Below are positions 8,540 to 54,341 of a stretch of 64,000 nucleotides of DNA, piece after piece. The notes below the pieces were generated by a model. That model made no database searches, was not told the origin of the DNA, and saw nothing but the letters and a program-made list of their open reading frames with translations. Source of the DNA: Candidatus Uhrbacteria bacterium (GTDB taxonomy: Bacteria > Patescibacteriota > Patescibacteriia > UBA9934); NCBI GenBank assembly GCA_018673485.1, contig JABHCP010000002.1, positions 1,502-65,501 of the forward strand. Direction: 5' to 3'. Position 1 is the stretch's first letter. Each line of letters opens with the position of its first letter. Position numbers and translations under genes: made by a program.

Positions 8540-8563
8540 AACCCCGCAATCGCGGGGTTTTCT
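8540..8563. terminator. Rho-independent terminator aaaaCCCCGCaatcGCGGGGtttt
   Basis: Perfect 6 bp GC stem flanked by A4/T4. Confidence 0.7.
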
Positions 8564-8579
8564 TGATCCCAGGGTATGT

Positions 8580-8655
8580 TGGTGGATCCGACGGGAGTCG
8601 AACCCGCATCCTCTGGTGACAAGCAAGATGAGGTTACCATTACCTCTACGGACCC
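8580..8655 (-). tRNA. tRNA, probably Thr (anticodon TGT)
   Basis: RC GGGTCCGTAGAGGTAATGGTAACCTCATCTTGCTTGTCACCAGAGGATGCGGGTTCGACTCCCGTCGGATCCACCA; good acceptor, D and T arms; anticodon arm has one mismatch and C37, so the isotype call is tentative. Confidence 0.6.
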
Positions 8656-8768
8656 ATTTCCCTGAGCTAATAAAATAAAAACAAGGATTTGCGTCCTTGT
8701 TGTTATTTGTCACCAGAGGCGAGTTCTTTTATAGAACCTCATCTAGCACTTCTATTACAGCATCTGAA

Positions 8769-9470
8769 CTATCTTCCGTCAATGCCCAGTGTTGATAAAA
8801 GCTCTCTTCGTTCTGTTTTTGTGAGTTGTCGATAGTTTCCGGGGCCAAGCTCACCGAGCTTTACATTCATTACTCGAATGCGTTTGAGTGTTGCAACTTC
8901 GTATCCGAGTGCTGTACACATCCTTCTGATTTGTCGGTTGCGACCTTCCTTGAGGATGATTTTAAATTTCTTTGGACCAAGATTTTTTACAGGTGCAGGA
9001 TTTGTTACTCGTCCGTCGAGCATCACGCCCTTTTTCATTCCATCGAGAAACTTTCGATTCATTTCTTTGTTCACAGTAACAACGTATTCTTTTTCATGCT
9101 CAAATTTTGGACTGGCAATTTTATTGGCAATATCGCCGTTATTTGTGAGAAGTAATAGTCCAGTAGACTCAACATCAATTCGACCAATGTAGATTAGGCG
9201 CTCATCAGAATCGATGTAGTCAAAAACGGTATTGTCGGCATCCTCATCTGAAGTGCAGATAACACCATATGGTTTGTGAAATGCGATGAAGACATCACCT
9301 GAGCGTGGTCTGATGAGCTCACCGTCGACATAGACCTTCTGTCCTTCTTCAACCTGCTGCCCAACTTTTGCCAGATCATTCCCAATAGTAACCCGACCGT
9401 CATCAATAAGCGTGTCGGCTTTTCGTCTTGAACAAAATCCAGAATCAGCAATGTATTTGTTTAGTCTCAT
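8769..9470 (-). CDS. rRNA pseudouridine synthase, RsuA/RluB family (S4 domain + catalytic domain)
   Basis: N-terminal S4 (LNKYIADSGFCSRRKADTLI), catalytic motifs HKPYGVICT and GRIDVESTGLLLLTNNG. Confidence 0.85.
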   Translation of the reverse strand: MRLNKYIADSGFCSRRKADTLIDDGRVTIGNDLAKVGQQVEEGQKVYVDGELIRPRSGDVFIAFHKPYGVICTSDEDADNTVFDYIDSDERLIYIGRIDVESTGLLLLTNNGDIANKIASPKFEHEKEYVVTVNKEMNRKFLDGMKKGVMLDGRVTNPAPVKNLGPKKFKIILKEGRNRQIRRMCTALGYEVATLKRIRVMNVKLGELGPGNYRQLTKTERRELLSTLGIDGR

Positions 9471-9517
9471 ACGTGAAAGATCATAGCAGAAACCCCAATA
9501 AAATCAAGGTTTTAGCT

Positions 9518-9548
9518 CCAAGGTTGAACCTTAGAGGTTCAACCTTGG
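9518..9548. promoter_or_regulatory. palindrome ccaaggttgaacct-tag-aggttcaaccttgg (copy 2 of 2)
   Basis: Same element as 697-726; located about 50 bp upstream of the pseudouridine synthase start. Confidence 0.5.
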
Positions 9549-9702
9549 GTGTCATTCTGAGTGAATGCAGCGGCTCTCGCGCTTCCTTTATGTCCATCTT
9601 GTATAGATCGTTGTACAGCGCGTTGTTGTTTTGAGCTTTGTGTTTTTTCATGTAAGCTAAAAGTGTCTCATTTAGCCCCGAATGGTCGGGAAAGGAGTGA
9701 GT

Positions 9703-13320: not shown

Positions 13321-13493
13321 AGTATCCTTTTTTGTCATCCTGAACAAAGTGAAGGATCTACTCATCGAGCTCAGCTCGACTCAAGAAGATTTCTCTCTAC
13401 GTTCGAAATGGGAAATTAATTTTCATCTCAACGCATCGGAGAGGTCCTCTCAATCTAGTTGATCCTTCGCGGAGCCTCAGGATGATAATTTAT
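13321..13493. repeat. composite intergenic repeat (family B copy 2, plus ccttcgcRgagcctcaggatga module)
   Basis: ctcaagaagatttctctctacgttcgaaatgg shared with 50700-50735 and 40240-40262; gatccttcgcggagcctcaggatgat shared with 25640-25668. Confidence 0.6.
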
Positions 13494-16626: not shown

Positions 16627-17058
16627 TCATTGGATCATGGTGGGGTCGAGTTCTGCGCCTTCGGGCCACATGGCCTCGGGTGGCAGGTCGGTCAGGCCGA
16701 ACTTGTCAGGATCGCCGAAGAAGATGGAGAATTTGATCTGCAGATCGCCGTTGCGTACAGTGAGGTCATGCATCCCTTCCGATGGTCGTAGTGAGCGCAT
16801 CTGGTTGTCATGCAAAGGGATGCCCATGTGCGTGAGGGTTCGATCGCAGAGATCGTTTGGCGTGCTGAGCGTCCCAGCGACATTTCCACAGATCAAGCCG
16901 ATGGTGATCTCGACTGGGCCCATCACACGTTCGATGAAGTCGGGGTGGACACCGTTGATCGTCATCTTGTTGTTGAGCCTGATGATGGATGGGTCGCGTT
17001 CATCTACGTCGTAGTACACACGGTGACCACGATATTGAATGAGCAGTGCGTTTGCCAT
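16627..17058 (-). CDS. GC-rich small protein, paralog A of a tandem triplet (unknown function)
   Basis: Over 60% GC; alignable to 17695-18129 (LLIQYRGH / LLVVRSGH, VAGTL / IAGTL, FGLTDLP / YGLRGYNLEP). Confidence 0.5.
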   Translation of the reverse strand: MANALLIQYRGHRVYYDVDERDPSIIRLNNKMTINGVHPDFIERVMGPVEITIGLICGNVAGTLSTPNDLCDRTLTHMGIPLHDNQMRSLRPSEGMHDLTVRNGDLQIKFSIFFGDPDKFGLTDLPPEAMWPEGAELDPTMIQ

Positions 17059-17185: not shown

Positions 17186-17554
17186 CTAGCGACCGAACTG
17201 GATCAGGGTCGGTGGTGCTCCAGTTGCGCTGACGTAGTAGTGAAGGACGAGTTCGTGATCTTCACGAATCAACCGAAGCTCATGCACACCACTACTTGGG
17301 TAGGTTGTGGCCTGTGTGGTGCGGCTTCCATTGAAGAAGGCGCGGATGTCGCCACGGATAGCGAATACGATTCGCTCCGCTTGCGGTGTCACGATGATCC
17401 ACGTATTGCCCATCAGCGCGCTCACGAAGTCTGCTTGGGCGCCGCGCACATCCATATGGCTATCAAAGACCATTTCATCGTCTTCGTAGCGAGGGTTGAT
17501 GGGATAGAAGAGCCCATCGAGGACTCGTCCTAACATGAAGATGGGGAGTGCCAT
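17186..17554 (-). CDS. GC-rich small protein, paralog B of a tandem triplet
   Basis: Strong RBS aaggagagacaac; HELRLIREDHELVLHYY aligns to HRLKIIRGDQEVELCLEY of paralog C. Confidence 0.5.
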   Translation of the reverse strand: MALPIFMLGRVLDGLFYPINPRYEDDEMVFDSHMDVRGAQADFVSALMGNTWIIVTPQAERIVFAIRGDIRAFFNGSRTTQATTYPSSGVHELRLIREDHELVLHYYVSATGAPPTLIQFGR

Positions 17555-17694: not shown

Positions 17695-18129
17695 TTAGGC
17701 GCCGAGGCGTGGAGGTTTGTTGGGGGTGGGTCTGGTCAGTCGTGGTGTCACGGGTTCCAGGTTGTAGCCGCGCAGGCCGTAGTTGTACTCGAGGCAGAGC
17801 TCAACCTCCTGGTCACCACGGATGATCTTGAGGCGGTGTTGCGAGTGGTCTGGCCCCAAGACGATGCCAGTGCACCACCGGCCATGGACCCTCACTTCAA
17901 TCTCGTTGACACGCAGAGTGCCCGCGATCGCCAGTCGGAAGCTATCATCTTGTTGATCTGGGATGAGCCGGATGACCAGGTCGCCTAGGACATCTTGGAT
18001 CTTGCGAATCGGGATCATGTGGATACTCATCCGCTTGTCGATGACGAAGTGGCCATCATCTTTGTTTCGTTGCAGGCGAGCCTTGCTGTGTCCGCTTCGG
18101 ACTACGAGTAGTGGTTTTGCGTAACTCAT
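17695..18129 (-). CDS. GC-rich small protein, paralog C of a tandem triplet
   Basis: Followed by hairpin agccccgcagccgatcgtatcggtgcgggg, near-identical to the hairpin after paralog B. Confidence 0.5.
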   Translation of the reverse strand: MSYAKPLLVVRSGHSKARLQRNKDDGHFVIDKRMSIHMIPIRKIQDVLGDLVIRLIPDQQDDSFRLAIAGTLRVNEIEVRVHGRWCTGIVLGPDHSQHRLKIIRGDQEVELCLEYNYGLRGYNLEPVTPRLTRPTPNKPPRLGA

Positions 18130-24637: not shown

Positions 24638-25585
24638 ATGGATCGTAGAGCTTGGAACAAAGCAGTCGAGAATCACGCCCCGCGTTTTGGCGGATTTTTG
24701 CATTCCTGGCAATGGGGAGAGTTTCAGCGATCATTAGGACGCGTGGTTGAGCGTGTCCATCGAGAGGATGAACAGGGCGTAACATTAGCTCAAGCAGTTA
24801 AAATGCCATTGCCACTCGGACAGTATTATTGGTACATACCAAAGGGACCGATCGGATCAGCATCGGTTGATCATAAGATCGAGGTGCTACGTCAAGAACT
24901 TCCCGATGCGATGTTCTCACGGCTCGAACCAGTTGAGAATCCAGGTTTGCAAAAAGTTAATGACATGCAACCTTCGACGACTACCATTTTGGATTTAACA
25001 AAGGGGCGAGATGAGATTTTTAACAATCTCAAATCAAAAACTCGCTACAATATTCGTTTAGCAGAGCGCAAGGGTGTGGTTCCAAAGATTGTAAACATGC
25101 AGCGATTTGATGATTTTGTTAGATTACTTGAACAAACGACAACTCGTGATAAGTTCTCAGCACATCCAGAAGCTTATTATCGCGCAATGCTTGATGTGAT
25201 GAAGAATGATGGAGCTGAGGCTTATTTGGCAGTTGGTTTTTATGAGGAGCGTGTGATTTGCGCGAATATTATGATTGACTTTGCTGGCGTGCGAACATAC
25301 TTGCATGGCGCGTCGAGCAATTTGCATCGCAATGTTATGGCACCATATTTATTGCATTGGTATTTAATTGAGGATGCTATTCGACAGGGAATGCATACGT
25401 TTGATTTTTGGGGTATCGCGCCTGAAGGTTCTGGGCCAAAGCATCCATGGGCTGGGATTACTAGATACAAAAAAGGATTCAACGGTGAAATAGTCACGCA
25501 CCCCGGAACATTTGATTTGCAGATGAAGCACATGTGGTACGGAGCATATCGTGCCATGAGGGGTGTGAGAAGGTTTAAGATTTGA
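24638..25585 (+). CDS. FemAB-family peptidoglycan bridge aminoacyltransferase-like protein
   Basis: N-terminal FLHSWQWGEF resembles the FemX/FemAB N-terminus; size fits. Confidence 0.6.
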   Translation: MDRRAWNKAVENHAPRFGGFLHSWQWGEFQRSLGRVVERVHREDEQGVTLAQAVKMPLPLGQYYWYIPKGPIGSASVDHKIEVLRQELPDAMFSRLEPVENPGLQKVNDMQPSTTTILDLTKGRDEIFNNLKSKTRYNIRLAERKGVVPKIVNMQRFDDFVRLLEQTTTRDKFSAHPEAYYRAMLDVMKNDGAEAYLAVGFYEERVICANIMIDFAGVRTYLHGASSNLHRNVMAPYLLHWYLIEDAIRQGMHTFDFWGIAPEGSGPKHPWAGITRYKKGFNGEIVTHPGTFDLQMKHMWYGAYRAMRGVRRFKI

Positions 25586-25699
25586 TTCATTTGTCATCCA
25601 ATAGTTGTTATTCTGAGGTCGAAGACCAAAGAGTCCACTAGTAGATCCTTCGCAGAGCCTCAGGATGACAGAGGGGATAAATAAGACCTATAGGGCATG

Positions 25700-27050
25700 T
25701 AAGTTCTGTAGGTTTTTTTTGTTTGGAAAGTGCAGAACCCCGGCTACCACGTTCAGAAGTGTGGTAGTCGGGGTTCACGGGTGGGCCGTCGGAATCGAGT
25801 CCGTCGGTGTTGGCGATTTGGATCTTCTCGATGATCCTCCTCTTAGTTGTGGTTCATCGGGGGGGGTGACGGCGGAGACGATCGGCGCCGTCGGACTTTT
25901 GGGCCATAGAATACCTGTACCCAAGGCCTAGGCTGGCTTTTACCTTTTGCAAGGTGACCTGTTCCACGGGTCGGCTCCTAGCGTATGGAAGGACGTTTGG
26001 GTTCCTGTCCGGGGAGTCGCCTTTTTGGGGGCGGCTCGGGCGGTCACAGCCGAAGCTGAGCCATACGATCCTGCTGGAACGTCGATGTCTGAAGTCGCAC
26101 ATTCGCTCATCCAGAACTAAAGAATAATGCCATAATTTTGAGCTTTTGTCAAGCCTAAAGCACAAAAAGGCCTTGAAAGCCTTTTATTTACAAAGAAAAC
26201 GTCCGGCACGCTTGGCGCCGGACAGTGTGGGGATAGAACCCACTCGGAGGATTGTGGTTTGGCTCTGCGCGCTGATGTTTCTCCTCGTGACTCGAGCATT
26301 CTATAGGGGTGGAGTTGTTAATTCCAGATTCCTCTAAAGAGCACTGTCATAGTCACATCAGCAGAGCCTAGTGATCGTCTCGACACCTCTGGGGTACGTT
26401 GGCCTCGGAGTCGGGGGTGTCCTCGCGGGCGGTGGCGACGGAGGTCGCCACCGGGGGGCCGTTGCAACGCTGCATCGGATCTCCGGTTGGGGGTTTTGAG
26501 GGTTCAGGGGTTTGGTGGCTCGGACGTTCGATGGTCCGGGCTAGGCACCCTGTCCTCTGGGCTGTCCGAAGCCTGGTGGCTCCGGGGCGGTCGGTTCTGT
26601 GGCAGCCGGGTAGGGCTACCAGGTCAACGCTCCTGCTGGGCAGGAGAGCGGATCGCGGTCAGGACGAGGTCAAGCCTGGTCGTGAAAGCGGTCGGCAGGA
26701 GTAGAATAGCAGATATGGGGGATGTGTCAAGGCCGAGATGAGCCAGGGGGCACTTCGTCCCCCTGTAACCCCCAGACATACTTTCTTTGTTGGCTCAAAG
26801 AAAGTATGCAAAGAAAAAGCCTTTTCAGAGTGTTCCACGGCCGTAAAGAATGATGCGGCCTGCAGTCAATGTTTTTGGGTGACTATGAGTGGACTGATTG
26901 CCAGTTCGGTCGGCAGGCTCCCTCTCAGACGGGGTTGTCTGACAATGGGTGAACGGGGGCTGGCTGCTGAAACATTGCCGGGGGACTGAGGTGAGATTGA
27001 AAATGCAAAAGAACCGAGCGGTACCCGGTTCTTCAGCATAGTTTTAGGTT
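25700..27050. other. GC-rich (about 60%) non-coding, hairpin-dense segment; candidate large structured RNA or degenerate foreign insert
   Basis: No frame gives a credible protein (only R/G/A-rich short ORFs); many strong hairpins (25734-25775, 26165-26190, 26195-26225, 26770-26805, 27010-27040). Confidence 0.4.
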
Positions 27051-27060
27051 TGTTTTTTTG

Positions 27061-28962
27061 TTATTCAATTACCACGCCGCCTTCTACGCTTGCGTATAGG
27101 TCGTCTTCTAAGTCAGTTGTGAGTGAGTCGGTTTCGTCGGAGAGTGATTCGTCTGTTGAGGAGTCAGTTGCGGATAGGTCGGATCCTGAGATTAGTTTTA
27201 TAAAGCTGCCGATGTCGTTCGAGTCTGGTGTGATTGAGATTGAGAATTCACCTTGTACGTTTGAAAGCTCTAATGAGAGTGAATCAATGGTCCAGCTTAC
27301 GCTGTGTTCTGAGCTGTTGTAGTTGATAGATCCTAGGTCGCGTGTTGCGTTTCCTGCCCATACTACGTGTGGAGGCAGATCGGCACTTACGGTTATGTCC
27401 TCCAGATCGTGCAGGCTATTGTTGATTGTCCAGATAACTCGATAGGTGGTTGTTTGTCCGACTTGTGGTGGTAGTGGCCCGTTTCCAAGTGCTGCGCCAC
27501 TTTCTTCGTAGTATCGAACCGATGCTTGCAGGTCTGCTTGTGAGTTTATTGATACTTCCATTGGGGAAGAGAGAACTGTGCGTCCGCTGTAAGTAGTTGA
27601 TGCGATGACGTTGAAGTTATCAGCGTCACCAACACCAAGCTCTGAGTCAATAGGGAAGGATGTGTTGATGAGAATTTTCTCACCTGGCTCGATAGAGTCG
27701 AGCTGCCAGTAAATTCCATCACTTGTAATCGTTCCACTGTCGAGCGTTGAGCTGCTCCATGCAATTGGAATAGAATCATCTGCTTGAAAGTCTAGAAGAA
27801 CGGTTAAATTTTCGATTGGAGCGTCTTGTGTGTTCTCAAGACCGATGCTCATTCTTAGCGCTCCACCTACGTCAACGCTGGTTTCGTCAGTTGCGCCATT
27901 GGCTACTACCCGCACACTAATGTCATTTTGCATCACATCTGTATATGCTTGCGCAGTTGATTGTTCTACTTCGCGATTCTCGGTCATCAAATTTATAGCA
28001 ACATCAAAATATTGGAAGCTTTCAACGTTGGATGCAAATACGCCTGAGAATGTGATTTCTATTGTTTCAAGTGTGTCGATATATTCTATAGTCCATTGAG
28101 CTGGACCGCCGGCCTCGAGTTCTGGATCGCTGCTTTCTAAGTAAAATCCTTGGGGCAGATCCATTGAAACCAATACATTCTCAAAGGGCTCTTCACCAGA
28201 GTTCTCGACACTGATTGTGTAGTCGAGGTCTTCTCCGGCTGACGCTTCTTCTGGTCCTTCAATCGTTGCAACTAATGTACTTTCAAGCGTAGTCACATAA
28301 ACAACTGCAATGTCTTCGAAGTCAGAATTGAAGTTGCCAGGTTTGTAAGTTGCGTAGGCTTGCACTGGAGTTTCAGATGGCGCCTCAGCTATCCAAACGC
28401 CGTCGATGGTTATTTTATTATCCGTCATTCCAGGAATCGATCCTATTTCCCAGATAAGATCATCAAGGTTTGCCGGTTCTTGGCTAAATGAGTAGACACG
28501 GAACGCTGAAGGGAGATTGATGTCTAAATCAAGCGATGCAATTGGAACTGTTGTTGGGTTTGCGTATTGAATTTCAATTTGCGTTGTTTGTCCACTAACC
28601 AATTCTTCTTGCATGACAATGTCTAATGTGAAATTCTCGTCATGTGACACTTCAAAGAGTTTAGTGTAGGCGAAAAATCCAGCCCAAGAAGTTACTGCGA
28701 GTATTGATAGGATGACCACCGCTGCTATTAAGATGCGAGTAAGCTTGTTGCTGTTTCTGTCTAGTTTTTCAAAGTTTATTGCACCGTCGCCGTAAATTGC
28801 CTCGAGACCTTCGTCCATTAATTGCTCACGATCTTCTTCGGGAGTGTGATGAGTGTGTTTTGCGTGAGTGTGTGATTTTGCGGGAGCATCAGACACCGGC
28901 TTTTTTGTATGTGCCGGCTTTTTGTGTTTAGTGTGCGTTGTTTTTGGTTCCTTTGGTGTCAT
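27061..28962 (-). CDS. type II membrane-anchored large surface protein with His/Lys-rich cytoplasmic N-terminus
   Basis: N-terminal KTTHTKHKKPAHTKK ..., TM helix ILIAAVVILSILAVTSWAGFFAY, beta-rich acidic ectodomain; overlaps the DUF4012 gene start (operon). Confidence 0.6.
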   Translation of the reverse strand: MTPKEPKTTHTKHKKPAHTKKPVSDAPAKSHTHAKHTHHTPEEDREQLMDEGLEAIYGDGAINFEKLDRNSNKLTRILIAAVVILSILAVTSWAGFFAYTKLFEVSHDENFTLDIVMQEELVSGQTTQIEIQYANPTTVPIASLDLDINLPSAFRVYSFSQEPANLDDLIWEIGSIPGMTDNKITIDGVWIAEAPSETPVQAYATYKPGNFNSDFEDIAVVYVTTLESTLVATIEGPEEASAGEDLDYTISVENSGEEPFENVLVSMDLPQGFYLESSDPELEAGGPAQWTIEYIDTLETIEITFSGVFASNVESFQYFDVAINLMTENREVEQSTAQAYTDVMQNDISVRVVANGATDETSVDVGGALRMSIGLENTQDAPIENLTVLLDFQADDSIPIAWSSSTLDSGTITSDGIYWQLDSIEPGEKILINTSFPIDSELGVGDADNFNVIASTTYSGRTVLSSPMEVSINSQADLQASVRYYEESGAALGNGPLPPQVGQTTTYRVIWTINNSLHDLEDITVSADLPPHVVWAGNATRDLGSINYNSSEHSVSWTIDSLSLELSNVQGEFSISITPDSNDIGSFIKLISGSDLSATDSSTDESLSDETDSLTTDLEDDLYASVEGGVVIE

Positions 28963-32716: not shown

Positions 32717-33042
32717 TTGTGCTCATTACGACAATAGACTTCCGTTTTTTACTTGCCATGTTTGGCTGCAAAGCCTTCAGATCTCGTCAAGATAGTCCCA
32801 CTATCTCTCCTCGATCTTCAAACTTTTCGCCTAAACATTCCTACGTAAAAATTCGAAATCTATTTTCGTAATAAGCACTTACATTTTATCACGAATTGAT
32901 GTAACTTTAGTGCTCAAATGTGGGTAACAGTGGATAAATTATTACACACGTCGTGATTGACGTGAACACATATTTTTGATAGGCTTCTCCCTTGGCTTTT
33001 CAAGGTCGAGAAATCCTTTCAAACCGCATCACGGAGGTGCGC

Positions 33043-33657
33043 ATGAGCAAGCAGAGAATGGATCCTAACGCCGAAGAGCAATTTCGGGCTCGAGCGCTTC
33101 TCGTGTTGGGTATTTTCATGGTGGCCGTGTTCACCTATGTGGCCGTTGTGAGCGATCTGCCATTCTGGCCGCAGGGTCAGGGGGGCGCCAACGAGGCCGT
33201 CCAGGTCGAGCGGCCGGAGCAGATGACCTCGCCCTACGCGCAGTTCTGCTTCCTGATCCCCGACGGCCTCGAGCTGCCTGTGAGCGTCCAAGCCAAGACG
33301 GTGGGTGGACGCAGTGTTGATCACCATACGGAGATCCCACTTTTTGCTCAGGAGGCGGAGGGGTCGTATTGCGGTGAGGTGTATATCACACCTCAGTATC
33401 CTGTCATGATGGTCACGATCATTCGCGATCCGCACTACACACCCGACTTCGAGGAGCTCTGGGTTCATGAGTCGCCGAGTGATGCTCCTCGGCAGATCAT
33501 TTGCACTGACGAGAAGTGCGAGGTGTTGCTCTATGACAGGACCAAGGTGCTCAATGTGTTCGGTCTCGAGCCACCTCTGGTCGACGAGACACGGATCTAT
33601 GGGTTCACTCCGGTCGATGGCAGTGTTTGGATCTCGAGCGAGCCAAAACAAAACTAG
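33043..33657 (+). CDS. GC-rich (about 60%) hypothetical membrane-anchored protein inside the glycosyltransferase cluster
   Basis: RBS ggaggtgcgc before ATG at 33043; TM ALLVLGIFMVAVFTYVAVV; followed by two hairpins at 33680-33750. Confidence 0.45.
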   Translation: MSKQRMDPNAEEQFRARALLVLGIFMVAVFTYVAVVSDLPFWPQGQGGANEAVQVERPEQMTSPYAQFCFLIPDGLELPVSVQAKTVGGRSVDHHTEIPLFAQEAEGSYCGEVYITPQYPVMMVTIIRDPHYTPDFEELWVHESPSDAPRQIICTDEKCEVLLYDRTKVLNVFGLEPPLVDETRIYGFTPVDGSVWISSEPKQN

Positions 33658-37711: not shown

Positions 37712-37759
37712 CCTGAGCAACAAAACGCACCGCGGTTGCGATGCGTTTTGTTGCTCAGG
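37712..37759. terminator. long hairpin cctgagcaacaaaacgca ... tgcgttttgttgctcagg (18 bp stem)
   Basis: Directly 3' of the RNase P RNA on the minus strand. Confidence 0.6.
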
Positions 37760-38185
37760 AAACTATAAGCCGAATTCTGTCCCCGACATAGCTCGTAGAG
37801 CGATGGCAAGGGATAGTCATTTATCTAGAATGATCGTTGCCAATCATTTCAAGCGAGCTACCTAATTTGCTCTTGCACCAGGATGGGTTTACCACGCCAC
37901 TGCGTCACCGCAGGGCGAAATGCGTAGCCTGTTGAGATCATGTGATCTCAGACACCGCATTACTTTTCACGTTTCACTTTGCTTGGCAAAGTTAGTATTG
38001 TCTCTGTGGCACTTTCCCTAAGTTTCATCAGACTGGCAGGAACAGATAATCCAGTTCCTTCCACTCTCATTTATATCTTGGTTGCTGTTAGCAACATCCT
38101 TTTTTCACAACGCGTTACCGCGCAGTGGGTGTTCGGACTTTCCTCATGGCGCAAAGCGCCAAGCGACTATCGGATTTCCTGAACG
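37755..38185 (-). ncRNA. rnpB: RNase P RNA (bacterial type, rnpB)
   Basis: On the minus strand: GAGGAAAGUCCGAACACC (P4 5' strand), GGUAACGCG, GGGAAAGUGCCACAGAGA, and near the 3' end GGGGACAGAAUUCGGCUUAUAG (P4 3' strand); P1 pairing UCAGGAAAU / GUUUCCUGA; not in the ORF track. Confidence 0.7.
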
Positions 38186-38362
38186 GGCAAACGATACCAT
38201 GATTAGCGCAGAATGTCAATGGGGGCAGACGTCAGAACCCAGACGTCAGACTACAGTTTAGTGTTATGACTGGATTCTGACGTCTGTATTCTGGGTTCTG
38301 TAAAAACAGTGATCCCCCGGACGTGGTCCGGGGGATAAGTGGGTCGTAGGGCTCGAGCCGTG

Positions 38363-38866
38363 CTAGTTGTCGCGGCAGTACTCATGCAATGCGGCCTGCA
38401 GATCCGCGACCTTCCGGAGTTTTGACAGGCCAACTCGGCACACACCTGTGCACGTGAACAGGCCTCGATCGCAGAACTCATGGCACCGTTCGGGGATTGC
38501 GAGGCAGAATTCACGCAAGGTCGTGGCTGTGACCATCTTGATCATGGCCGTGGGGTCGAGCGTGGTCATGCGAGCGACCGTCATGAAGGTGCGCTCGATC
38601 TCCGAGTATGCGATCTTGCAGCGCTCGGCGAGCGCGGTGGCTACGGCTGCCGTGACCTGCTCGCCGGTCTTCATGTTGAAGATGATGCTGTGCGAGGGAA
38701 GTGTGCCATCGGGCAGCACATCCTCCAGGTCAGTGAAGTGCACGAGCGCACGCTGGTGGTGCGACTTGAGGCGGCGCCACTGGCGTTGCGGGATGATGTC
38801 GAGGCACGAGTTGGTCGGGCGACCAGGGTTCGCGCTGGTGGGCGAGGAGGGGACAACTGCGGACAT
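38363..38866 (-). CDS. GC-rich (about 62%) hypothetical Cys-rich protein on an island flanked by inverted-repeat elements
   Basis: C-terminal C-x6-C-x3-C-x6-C-x3-C cluster; start codon uncertain (ORF opens inside the right-flank repeat); strong hairpin atcccccggac-gtg-gtccgggggat at 38313-38337. Confidence 0.4.
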   Translation of the reverse strand: MSAVVPSSPTSANPGRPTNSCLDIIPQRQWRRLKSHHQRALVHFTDLEDVLPDGTLPSHSIIFNMKTGEQVTAAVATALAERCKIAYSEIERTFMTVARMTTLDPTAMIKMVTATTLREFCLAIPERCHEFCDRGLFTCTGVCRVGLSKLRKVADLQAALHEYCRDN

Positions 38867-39129
38867 GTGGCAAACTCCTGGGGGAGATATCCGGGTTTCT
38901 GTTTCAGCTTGAGGGCTGCATGGAAGCCAGGCGCAGGTTGCACTTGACCAGAAAAATATAGCAGTGTTGGCGAAGAATGTCAATGAGGACGGTAGAAGAC
39001 GTCAGATGTCAGACTTCAGAACCCAGTTTAAGGTGCTGATGATATGGTCGGTAGGGGTTGTGAATAAAACAAAAGAACCGGTACATGCCGGTTCTAATAT
39101 GGGTTCTGAAGTCTGTATTCTGGGTTCTG

Positions 39130-54264: not shown

Positions 54265-54341
54265 TGGTGGGTCTGGCTGGACTCGAACCAGCGACCACGG
54301 AGGTATAAGCTCCGCGCTCTAACCAACTGAGCTACAGACCC
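54265..54341 (-). tRNA. tRNA-Ile (anticodon TAT)
   Basis: RC GGGTCTGTAGCTCAGTTGGTTAGAGCGCGGAGCTTATACCTCCGTGGTCGCTGGTTCGAGTCCAGCCAGACCCACCA; perfect cloverleaf; anticodon loop CTTATAC. Confidence 0.75.

Follow-up and report, generated by a model that had tools for sequence, protein, structure and literature searches.

What is the GC-rich, hairpin-dense segment of about 1.3 kb that separates a femAB-like gene from a surface-protein gene in a genome of Candidatus Uhrbacteria (Patescibacteria, candidate phyla radiation)? The segment spans positions 25700-27050 of the 64-kb stretch of DNA analysed here (contig JABHCP010000002.1 of assembly GCA_018673485.1, hereafter the window), and fills the intergenic gap between a FemAB-family gene on the plus strand and a convergent DUF11 surface-protein gene on the minus strand. 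A first-pass annotation had proposed that it is either an undescribed large structured RNA or a decayed foreign insert. Our analysis shows that the segment is made of three minus-strand non-coding modules, designated units A, B and C, and is not one RNA. The explanation we favour, and consider reasonably probable, is a polymorphic cluster of new minus-strand non-coding RNA (ncRNA) modules at an insertion hot spot. All of the evidence for it was obtained by computation, on five related metagenome-derived genomes.

Signals, strand and structure of the modules

The GC content of the segment is 56.0%, compared with 44.6% for the whole window; the enrichment reported at first pass stands, at a lower figure than the "about 60%" given then. 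The segment is not uniform (54.5% at 25701-26151 and 59.4% at 26201-26851). AT-rich spacers at ~26110-26200 and ~26700-26860 divide it into three modules, and these spacers hold minus-strand sigma-70 promoters and intrinsic terminators. An independent ENA assembly (L148) is 100% identical over 24803-28012, indicating that the segment is not an assembly chimera or artefact. The FemAB-like protein also has an identical copy in NCBI assembly GCA_018644925.1 and on a JGI contig. Contigs of other assemblies break at 26574, 26615 and 26795. We rejected strain variation as the explanation, because the break at 26795 falls within a 13-bp palindrome and the independent full-length assembly is identical.

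The promoter scan placed candidate near-consensus sigma-70 promoters ahead of units A and B, both scoring 10 of 12 with the TG of an extended -10 element; two were found where 0.6 were expected. The unit A promoter is kept in the related loci L005 and L069, and the unit B pattern cTTG...TGCTATyyT in L005, L069, L107 and L110. Likewise, the terminator of unit B, of canonical intrinsic form, retains its stem and T-run in five of five genomes, with compensatory changes. It is the gtccggc/gccggac hairpin noted at first pass, which is present and scores as a minus-strand terminator. Past it lies the small hairpin AAAAGGCnnnGCCTTTT, which accompanies unit A in L005 and L069 and is missing where A is missing. 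Unit A ends in a 16-bp hairpin followed by a bidirectional hairpin shared with femAB, and the TTTCCAAAC...hairpin tail of the latter also trails unit A or unit B in sister genomes. Thus A and B each carry a conserved sigma-70 promoter and terminator of their own, as an independent ncRNA gene would. The RNase P RNA gene of the window has a promoter of the same form, with an extended -10, which suggests that this promoter type drives stable RNA genes in the organism.

These signals indicate that the transcribed strand would be the minus strand, and not the G-rich plus strand read at first pass. Structure alone is not decisive, since the opposite strand also gives many predicted pairs; the strand call therefore relies on the promoters, the terminators and an excess of G.U over A.C pairs. 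All the hairpins named in the first-pass annotation are present. The 13-nt hairpin of unit C is perfect, as claimed, whereas the one described as perfect in unit A is 94% complementary, its one G.T on the plus strand being an A.C on the minus strand. The terminator-like hairpin at about 27010-27040 exists, but as a minus-strand terminator it ends the neighbouring surface-protein gene and is no part of the RNA to which it had been assigned.

We predicted the structure of unit B with RNAalifold on a five-genome alignment (A6; window, L005, L069, L107 and L110). The consensus has 69 pairs, of which 28 carry compensatory double changes, against 1-5 in slid controls. Standard pairs form in 90.1% of cells, compared with 36-47% when the 3' partners are slid by 1-3 columns, and 0 of 500 column shuffles reach the observed value. 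On the promoter strand 16 cells are G.U and 7 are A.C, and the covariation term is -2.25, against +5.21 on the opposite strand. Minus-strand fold z-scores are -5.1 for B and -5.6 for C. Together the results support a model in which B is a structured RNA with no match among described families, conserved in each of five related genomes. Covariation in homologous loci, which the first-pass annotation had proposed to examine, is thus seen above controls in the B helices. Its suggestion of an undescribed large structured RNA holds for the ~500-nt unit B, with its covarying helices and lack of an Rfam match, and fails for the 1.3 kb as a single RNA.

One hairpin of unit B appears, from its sequence, to be T-loop-like. 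The T-loop motif, found in tRNA T-arms, RNase P and tmRNA, has a 5-bp stem and a 7-nt loop with U1 and A5, and a U.A reverse-Hoogsteen pair. In unit B, the loops UUCUAUC, UCCAAUC and UCCUACC keep U1, C3, A5 and C7 on a covarying GYGGG/CCCRC stem. Invariant unpaired stretches of B include CCCUCAAAACCC, GAGGUGUCG.GACGAUC and the anti-Shine-Dalgarno-like AAUCCUC. As a separate observation, GCGGG-TTCTATC-CCCGC, the T-loop-like hairpin of L005 unit B, recurs with extended stems in intergenic spacers of many phage contigs (IMG/VR loci L034, L036, L039, L040, L045, L046, L050, L051, L055 and others). The count of 25 in IMG/VR is near a rough chance estimate, for which the collection size was assumed, and the contexts are real intergenic hairpins.

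Unit C was aligned in four copies, one from the window, two from L005 and one from another locus in L107. All cells of its 13-bp stem are paired (100%), and 4 pairs are compensatory; the inner stem UUUCUUUG/CAAAGAAA is invariant and the outer four pairs covary. Over the whole unit 8 of 28 pairs show double changes, against 0-2 in controls, and the flanking U.G pairs are possible on the minus strand only. The G-rich hairpin of C serves as a terminator where C closes an array. The evidence for unit A comes from alignments with L005 and L069 (three sequences) and a motif search. Alignment scores are 6-11 standard deviations (sd) above shuffles, fourfold-degenerate sites being saturated. The UUCG-loop hairpin of A shows one compensatory change, and an internal GC hairpin is also kept.

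Table 1. Features of the segment, its flanks and the RNase P RNA gene, in window coordinates.
Feature	Position	Strand	Remarks
femAB-like gene	24638-25585	+	preceded by ruvA
REP-like palindrome, ~80 nt	25593-25672	strandless	just past femAB stop codon; outside the RNA modules
Bidirectional hairpin	25683-25716	both	femAB terminator on plus strand, final unit A terminator on minus strand (terminator scan)
Unit A module	~26152-25730	-	includes promoter
Unit A promoter	26124-26152	-	TTGACA, 17-nt spacer, TGgCATTAT extended -10 (promoter scan)
Unit A transcript, predicted	26117-25730	-	~390 nt, C-rich
Unit A 5' block ATCGTATGGCTCAGCTTCGGCTGTG	26069-26045	-	conserved; UUCG-loop hairpin inside
Unit A element AAGAGGAGG	25844-25836	-	right after CA-rich stretch; ribosome-binding-site-like
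Unit A mini-ORF-like block	25823-25794	-	conserved; no start or stop codon in window
Unit A 3' hairpin, 16 bp	25776-25735	-	arms 25735-25750/25761-25776, 16 nt
Small bidirectional hairpin AAAAGGCnnnGCCTTTT	26165-26185	both	second terminator past unit B; left edge of A module
Unit B module	~26730-26196	-	promoter to terminator
Unit B promoter	26703-26730	-	TTGACA, 16-nt spacer, TGcTATTCT extended -10 (promoter scan)
Unit B transcript, predicted	26196-26697	-	~500 nt
Unit B long-range helix	26593-26586/26387-26381	-	RNAalifold, conserved
Unit B 8-bp hairpin	26585-26578/26573-26566	-	RNAalifold, conserved
Unit B single-stranded motif CCCUCAAAACCCCCAAC	26502-26486	-	conserved
Unit B single-stranded motif GAGGUGUCGAGACGAUC	26389-26373	-	conserved
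Unit B 14-bp interrupted long-range helix	26368-26355/26278-26261	-	closes 3' domain
Unit B small internal hairpin	26325-26323/26313-26311	-	RNAalifold, conserved
Unit B single-stranded motif AAUCCUCC	26253-26246	-	conserved
Unit B T-loop-like hairpin	26243-26227	-	GUGGG-UUCUAUC-CCCAC; 5-bp stem, 7-nt loop
Unit B intrinsic terminator	26200-26224	-	10-bp stem then GTTTTCTTT (terminator scan)
Unit C	26745-27005	-	~260 nt; conserved 3' core of ~130 nt
Unit C core hairpin	26860-26839	-	core also contains a U-rich stretch
Unit C 13-bp hairpin	26808-26777	-	arms 26777-26789/26796-26808
Unit C GGGGG hairpin	26765-26744	-	
Intrinsic terminator	27008-27034	-	ends DUF11 gene; upstream boundary of array (terminator scan)
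DUF11 surface-protein gene	27061-28962	-	last in GT4-DUF4012-DUF11 envelope operon (ORF and Pfam)
RNase P RNA (bacterial class A)	37751-38182	-	Rfam, 158.8 bits
RNase P RNA promoter	38191-38219	-	TTGACA-N14-TGG-TATCGT

Coding potential and family searches

The first-pass annotation saw no credible open reading frame (ORF) in the segment, and our searches agree. The 10 largest ORFs have no Pfam match, and the codon-phase GC signal is weak, at most 0.20 compared with 0.22-0.31 in the GC-rich coding islands of the window. Six-frame tblastn against the sister locus L005 found no translated frame kept, apart from stretches whose nucleotides match in every frame. The two largest ORFs gave no homologs: one of 101 amino acids (aa) matches only its own species among 5.8 billion proteins, and one of 103 aa has 4 low-complexity matches (best E 1e-5) among 1.8 billion representatives. 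By inspection, a conserved 25-nt block of unit A lies in different reading frames in the window and in L005, and indels of 1, 2, 11 and 20 nt separate the L069 and L110 copies of unit B, indicating that conservation acts at the nucleotide or RNA level.

Scanning the whole window with Rfam 15 (cmscan, gathering score) returned RNase P RNA and 4 tRNAs only. The best match in an E-value scan of 25400-27300 was to a terminator hairpin (E 0.089), and scans of four sister loci gave nothing within their arrays. In the segment there was no Rfam match to OLE, GOLLD, ROOL, HEARO, raiA, SRP, 6S or group I/II introns. Weak matches to RNase P, tmRNA, SRP or 6S were likewise missing from the region, ARAGORN found no tmRNA in the window, and neither the ORF list nor Pfam gave a reverse-transcriptase or maturase ORF that a group II intron might encode. 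Thus the Rfam models and ARAGORN confirm that RNase P, tmRNA and group II signatures are absent from the segment, and the comparison with large ornate RNAs and introns advised at first pass is consistent with an undescribed RNA.

Searches for other kinds of element were also negative. No repeat family beyond short chance pairs, as in CRISPR, tandem-repeat or integron arrays, was present (the neighbours are ruvA, femAB, DUF11, DUF4012 and GT4; attC models were not applied). For a type I toxin-antitoxin, the unit A mini-ORF is hydrophilic and not intact in the window, and no opposite-strand promoter was found. Sensitive blastn against phage and plasmid collections gave nothing or chance matches of ~43-53 nt on a palindrome, and the unit A block motif had no match in viral or metagenome contigs. 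The pattern of a Shine-Dalgarno (SD) element and mini-ORF had 36 metagenome matches, all by chance inside GC-rich coding sequence; for B and C motifs, viral contigs gave chance motif-level matches and nhmmer confirmed no homolog. The other GC-rich islands of the window contain no paralogs of the modules (blastn, nhmmer). No 4-mer or 5-mer is consistently enriched across homologs (minimum z at most 1.6), hence no motif of the CsrB/RsmZ/CrcZ type, and we rejected a sponge RNA on the lack of a repeated motif. Antisense matches to neighbouring genes reach 9-14 nt, equal to shuffled controls in all five genomes, and pairing between A and B is no better than in shuffles.

Could the modules instead encode small proteins or micropeptides behind long structured leaders, so that the GC-rich RNA is only a 5' untranslated region (UTR)? 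We give this a small chance, as we do the mobile-DNA explanation below; these two, then cis-acting and pseudogene explanations, are the rivals considered, in order of weight. In unit A the CA-rich stretch and AAGAGGAGG precede a 15-aa ORF MGIRIAPHSGLDPLS in L005 and a 12-aa ORF MVRIINRRGFDP in L069, and by inspection conserved Gly, Asp and Pro codons show synonymous changes. Furthermore, L005 carries a unit D, missing from the window (8560-8940, minus strand), in which a TTGACA-17-CATCAT promoter and strong SD precede a 50-aa ORF MHAWINTNTTAADMADTDASRLADSWTPLIATEVTDAPDEVLSANPQVC of very high third-position GC, and the island at 38312-38983 of the window, with a similar layout of promoter, leader and terminator, holds a 102-aa ORF with strong codon periodicity. 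However, the mini-ORF in the window lacks both a start codon (ATG, GTG or TTG) and a stop ahead of the terminators. In its middle, changes fall at the first and second codon positions and the third remains C, a pattern unlike that of purifying selection. No ORF is conserved in unit B, the module with the strongest conservation; indels of non-triplet length occur there, and the covariation of B would be left unexplained.

Turnover, selection and mosaicism among related genomes

Searches with both flanking proteins yielded this junction in eight further genome types. FemAB identities of 86-97% group the window with L107, L005, L069/L144 and L110 in one clade; L068 (81-84%), L006, L070 and L007 fall outside it. 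The junction holds A, B and C in the window; C, A, B, C and unit D in L005 (2.15 kb); A and B in L069 (identical to L144-L147, five assemblies); B only in L107; and B only in L110, where an inverted-repeat element precedes it. In the outgroup L068 the gap is 93 nt with no array, and in L007 it is 10 nt with no array. L006 has a methyltransferase-like ORF instead of the array, and in L070 a plus-strand ORF lies right behind femAB with no array seen before the contig end. These contents indicate that the array is limited to one clade, with B as the constant member. Absence from sibling genomes had been named at first pass as evidence against an RNA. The array is indeed missing in L068, L006 and L007, but it is present with kept structure in L005, L069/L144, L107 and L110.

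Unit A is present or absent at an identical T-tract junction (TTT/CCAAAC) in two sister pairs. In L107 a copy of C of ~290 nt stands at 1815-2100. It lies at or just past the -10 element of the GT4-DUF4012-DUF11 operon promoter (minus strand), with nothing at the corresponding window site (32930-32960). Together these observations indicate that the modules behave as discrete cassettes. The L107 copy would join the operon leader and ends in a hairpin and T-run. The inserts in L006 (7036-7812, a 258-aa ORF of normal GC, methyltransferase-like by eye) and L110 (7990-8130, an element with 26-nt inverted-repeat arms) are unrelated sequences that occupy the same junction, pointing to an insertion hot spot.

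Among clade members the fourfold-degenerate sites of femAB are 34-47% identical, which amounts to saturation (the exception is L069 vs L110, at 78%), so neutral DNA should be unalignable. The bodies of A and B nevertheless align 2.5-14 sd above shuffles, and promoters, terminators and several internal blocks are retained. A decayed foreign insert, the second proposal made at first pass, or a pseudogene therefore fares poorly: protein signal is absent, and conservation of the non-coding bodies clearly exceeds that of the saturated synonymous sites.

Divergence within unit B is uneven. Between the window and L107, positions 26530-26230 are 88-98% identical, compared with 65-87% for coding stretches of the locus; the 3' half of B is thus nearly identical in two distant genomes. 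Between L069 and L110, with 93% nucleotide identity in femAB, the B promoter and last 130 nt are ~95% identical, and the middle is 50-70% identical with many indels. An interior block of L110 B is common to the window and L107 and not to its sister L069. This mosaicism could be due to recombination or horizontal exchange within the clade, to a hypervariable periphery on a conserved scaffold, or to both.

The same turnover raises the second rival, mobile DNA of a selfish or neutral sort (MITE-like, REP-like or remnants of foreign GC-rich replicons) at a permissive site, with no RNA function for the host. It accounts for the whole-module presence and absence at one T-tract, the C copy at another L107 locus, the array-free outgroup L068 with other inserts in L006 and L110, the mosaic similarity of B, and a GC content far above the genome average. 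We nonetheless think it unlikely. We saw neither terminal inverted repeats nor clear target-site duplications, the array has no transposase or integrase gene beside it, and no similarity to phage, plasmid or viral contigs was found. Each module has a single copy in 64 kb, and among 1.27 Mb of other loci none was found except at syntenic sites and in the second-locus C of L107. Moreover, GC-richness, promoters, terminators and helices outlast synonymous saturation, which argues for selection.

Since all modules lie on the strand of the GT4-DUF4012-DUF11 operon and are aimed into femAB, the region might also act in cis, either as an extended 3' UTR or processing region of that operon or as regulated antisense into femAB and ruvA. 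Such a role would suit unit C, for which no promoter was found, and the C copy in the operon leader of L107. However, a good terminator (27034-27008) stands between operon and array, each of A and B is preceded by its own promoter, and two terminators in a row come before femAB. The same operon and femAB occur in sister genomes from which A, C or the entire array is missing, and complementarity to neighbouring genes is no higher than in shuffled controls. A cis-acting role thus appears improbable.

A decayed protein-coding gene with shifted or interrupted frames is very improbable. In its favour, GC is weakly but phase-consistently raised at one codon position of unit A (25750-26110), and a 91-aa ORF of L005 reads in frame into the mini-ORF. 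However, Pfam gave no match, no translation window is conserved against L005 beyond nucleotide matches in all frames, the largest ORFs match only themselves or low-complexity sequence among 5.8 and 1.8 billion proteins, and the conserved nucleotide block falls in different frames in different genomes.

Proposed roles, known systems and neighbouring features

The reading of the segment as a cluster of ncRNA modules has its own difficulties. Transcript starts, 3' ends and strand are predictions from consensus signals, and the promoter scan identified no promoter for unit C, which in this respect differs from an independent ncRNA gene. The fold of unit A barely beats shuffles (z -1.9), and the covariation term of its consensus structure, from three sequences, is positive. 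The base composition of unit B (C 37%, G 25%, A 22%, U 15%) is unusual for a structured RNA in its high C and low U, and the G-rich opposite strand folds more stably (-248 vs -192 kcal/mol) with more predicted pairs. The comparison comprises five distinct B, three A and four C sequences, all from one narrow clade, and the covariation counts are inflated because the structure was predicted on the same alignment. The uneven divergence of B (98% identity between distant genomes, ~70% between close ones) may reflect recombination rather than constraint. Finally, the searches found no partner, target or repeated binding motif, so any mode of action is a guess.

With these points weighed, the cluster of ncRNA modules would operate as follows. 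A and B would be transcribed autonomously from their own promoters. B would be an abundant ~500-nt structured RNA acting in trans, because only unit A, with its own promoter, and then a convergent gene lie downstream in the orientation of B. Our best guess is that B is a folded scaffold or the RNA of a ribonucleoprotein, whose helices would hold the invariant single-stranded C-rich and anti-SD-like segments and the T-loop-like hairpin for tertiary or partner contacts; segments at the periphery could vary or recombine freely. A would be a second RNA with a strong ribosome-binding-site-like element, and possibly a gene for a micropeptide of 12-15 aa in some genomes, though not in this one. C would be a small hairpin-rich element that could also sit in an mRNA leader.

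A more speculative proposal is that B is the RNA part of an unrecognised RNA-centred accessory system of candidate-phyla-radiation bacteria, a scaffold of conserved helices with hypervariable, horizontally exchanged segments that would specify a target or partner. Such an RNA might be guide-like, a decoy, anti-phage or an RNA-only mobile cassette. It would explain the mosaicism, the gain and loss of whole modules and the position beside a fast-evolving surface protein, yet we regard it as doubtful.

The best-supported classification places the modules in one or more new RNA families within a general class already known, the large structured bacterial ncRNA in a GC-rich intergenic region. Like OLE, GOLLD, ROOL, HEARO and raiA, unit B is long (~500 nt), GC-rich and non-coding, with its own predicted transcription signals and several covariation-supported helices in an intergenic region that is a GC outlier. 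Unlike them, it matches none of their Rfam models, is so far confined to one narrow Uhrbacteria clade, is C-rich and U-poor, stands in tandem with two other modules, and is mosaic and probably recombining. OLE, ROOL and GOLLD multimerise or bind proteins. Pipelines for GC-rich intergenic regions, as outlined in PMC6429828, PMC8632094, PMC8723152 and PMC11109978, find ncRNAs by intergenic GC that stands out from the genome.

The modules resemble the RNase P RNA in promoter form, in GC above the genome mean and in size class, but they are not universal, since close relatives lack some or all of them. CsrB/RsmZ and CrcZ are protein-sequestering sponges, and RoxS/RsaE are C-rich base-pairing small RNAs (sRNAs) of Gram-positive bacteria. 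Like these RNAs, the modules would be autonomous promoter-to-terminator units of 100-500 nt with fast-evolving sequence, and the conserved single-stranded B motifs CCCUCAAAACCC and AAUCCUCC, C-rich or anti-SD-like, could pair with G-rich ribosome-binding sites. In contrast to these RNAs, the modules show no enriched motif and no nearby target complementarity, and B is much larger and more structured than typical sRNAs. With REP and MITE elements they share hairpin-rich sequence, a place behind convergent genes, block-wise presence and absence and, for C in one genome, a second locus. They differ in that one copy of each module occurs per 64 kb, neither terminal inverted repeats nor target duplications were recognised, strong promoters and terminators are present, and B has internal covarying helices.

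Candidate-phyla-radiation genomes are small, and to our knowledge few ncRNAs beyond rRNA, tRNA, RNase P RNA and tmRNA have been described in these bacteria. Structured RNAs above ~400 nt whose function is unknown are rare in bacteria, and new biology has repeatedly come from them, as with OLE, GOLLD, ROOL and HEARO. The interest of the locus lies in a ~500-nt RNA with covarying helices and apparently strong predicted expression signals, and in two further modules at a rearranged site. Its unusual features are the array organisation, a conserved scaffold with mosaic or hypervariable segments, and turnover of whole modules. It also supplies an alignment usable for a covariance-model search of Patescibacteria genomes. 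If the modules were only selfish DNA, they would still be a new type of small GC-rich cassette in reduced genomes.

The other GC-rich islands of the window (54-60% GC) are small orphan protein genes with codon-phase GC of 0.22-0.31 and no Pfam or PHROG match (16627-17058, 17186-17554 and 17695-18129 on the minus strand, 32992-33657 on the plus strand, 38363-38671 on the minus strand). Three adjacent ones, of ~120-145 aa, may be paralogs. The minus-strand island at 38312-38983, directly upstream of the RNase P RNA gene, is laid out as are units A and B, with a TTGACA-17-TATATT promoter carrying a TG (38983-38955), a leader of ~275 nt, the 102-aa ORF and a terminator (38336-38312).

The REP-like palindrome behind femAB has a 31-nt core (25638-25668) that is 93.5% identical to 13455-13485 (blastn), and a second pair of REP-like intergenic repeats, 41 nt and 92.7% identical, lies at ~690-730 and ~9510-9550. 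The window also encodes a tRNA-Ile with anticodon TAT (54265-54341, minus strand; ARAGORN). Among bacteria such a tRNA is uncommon, and it implies that AUA is decoded without lysidine.

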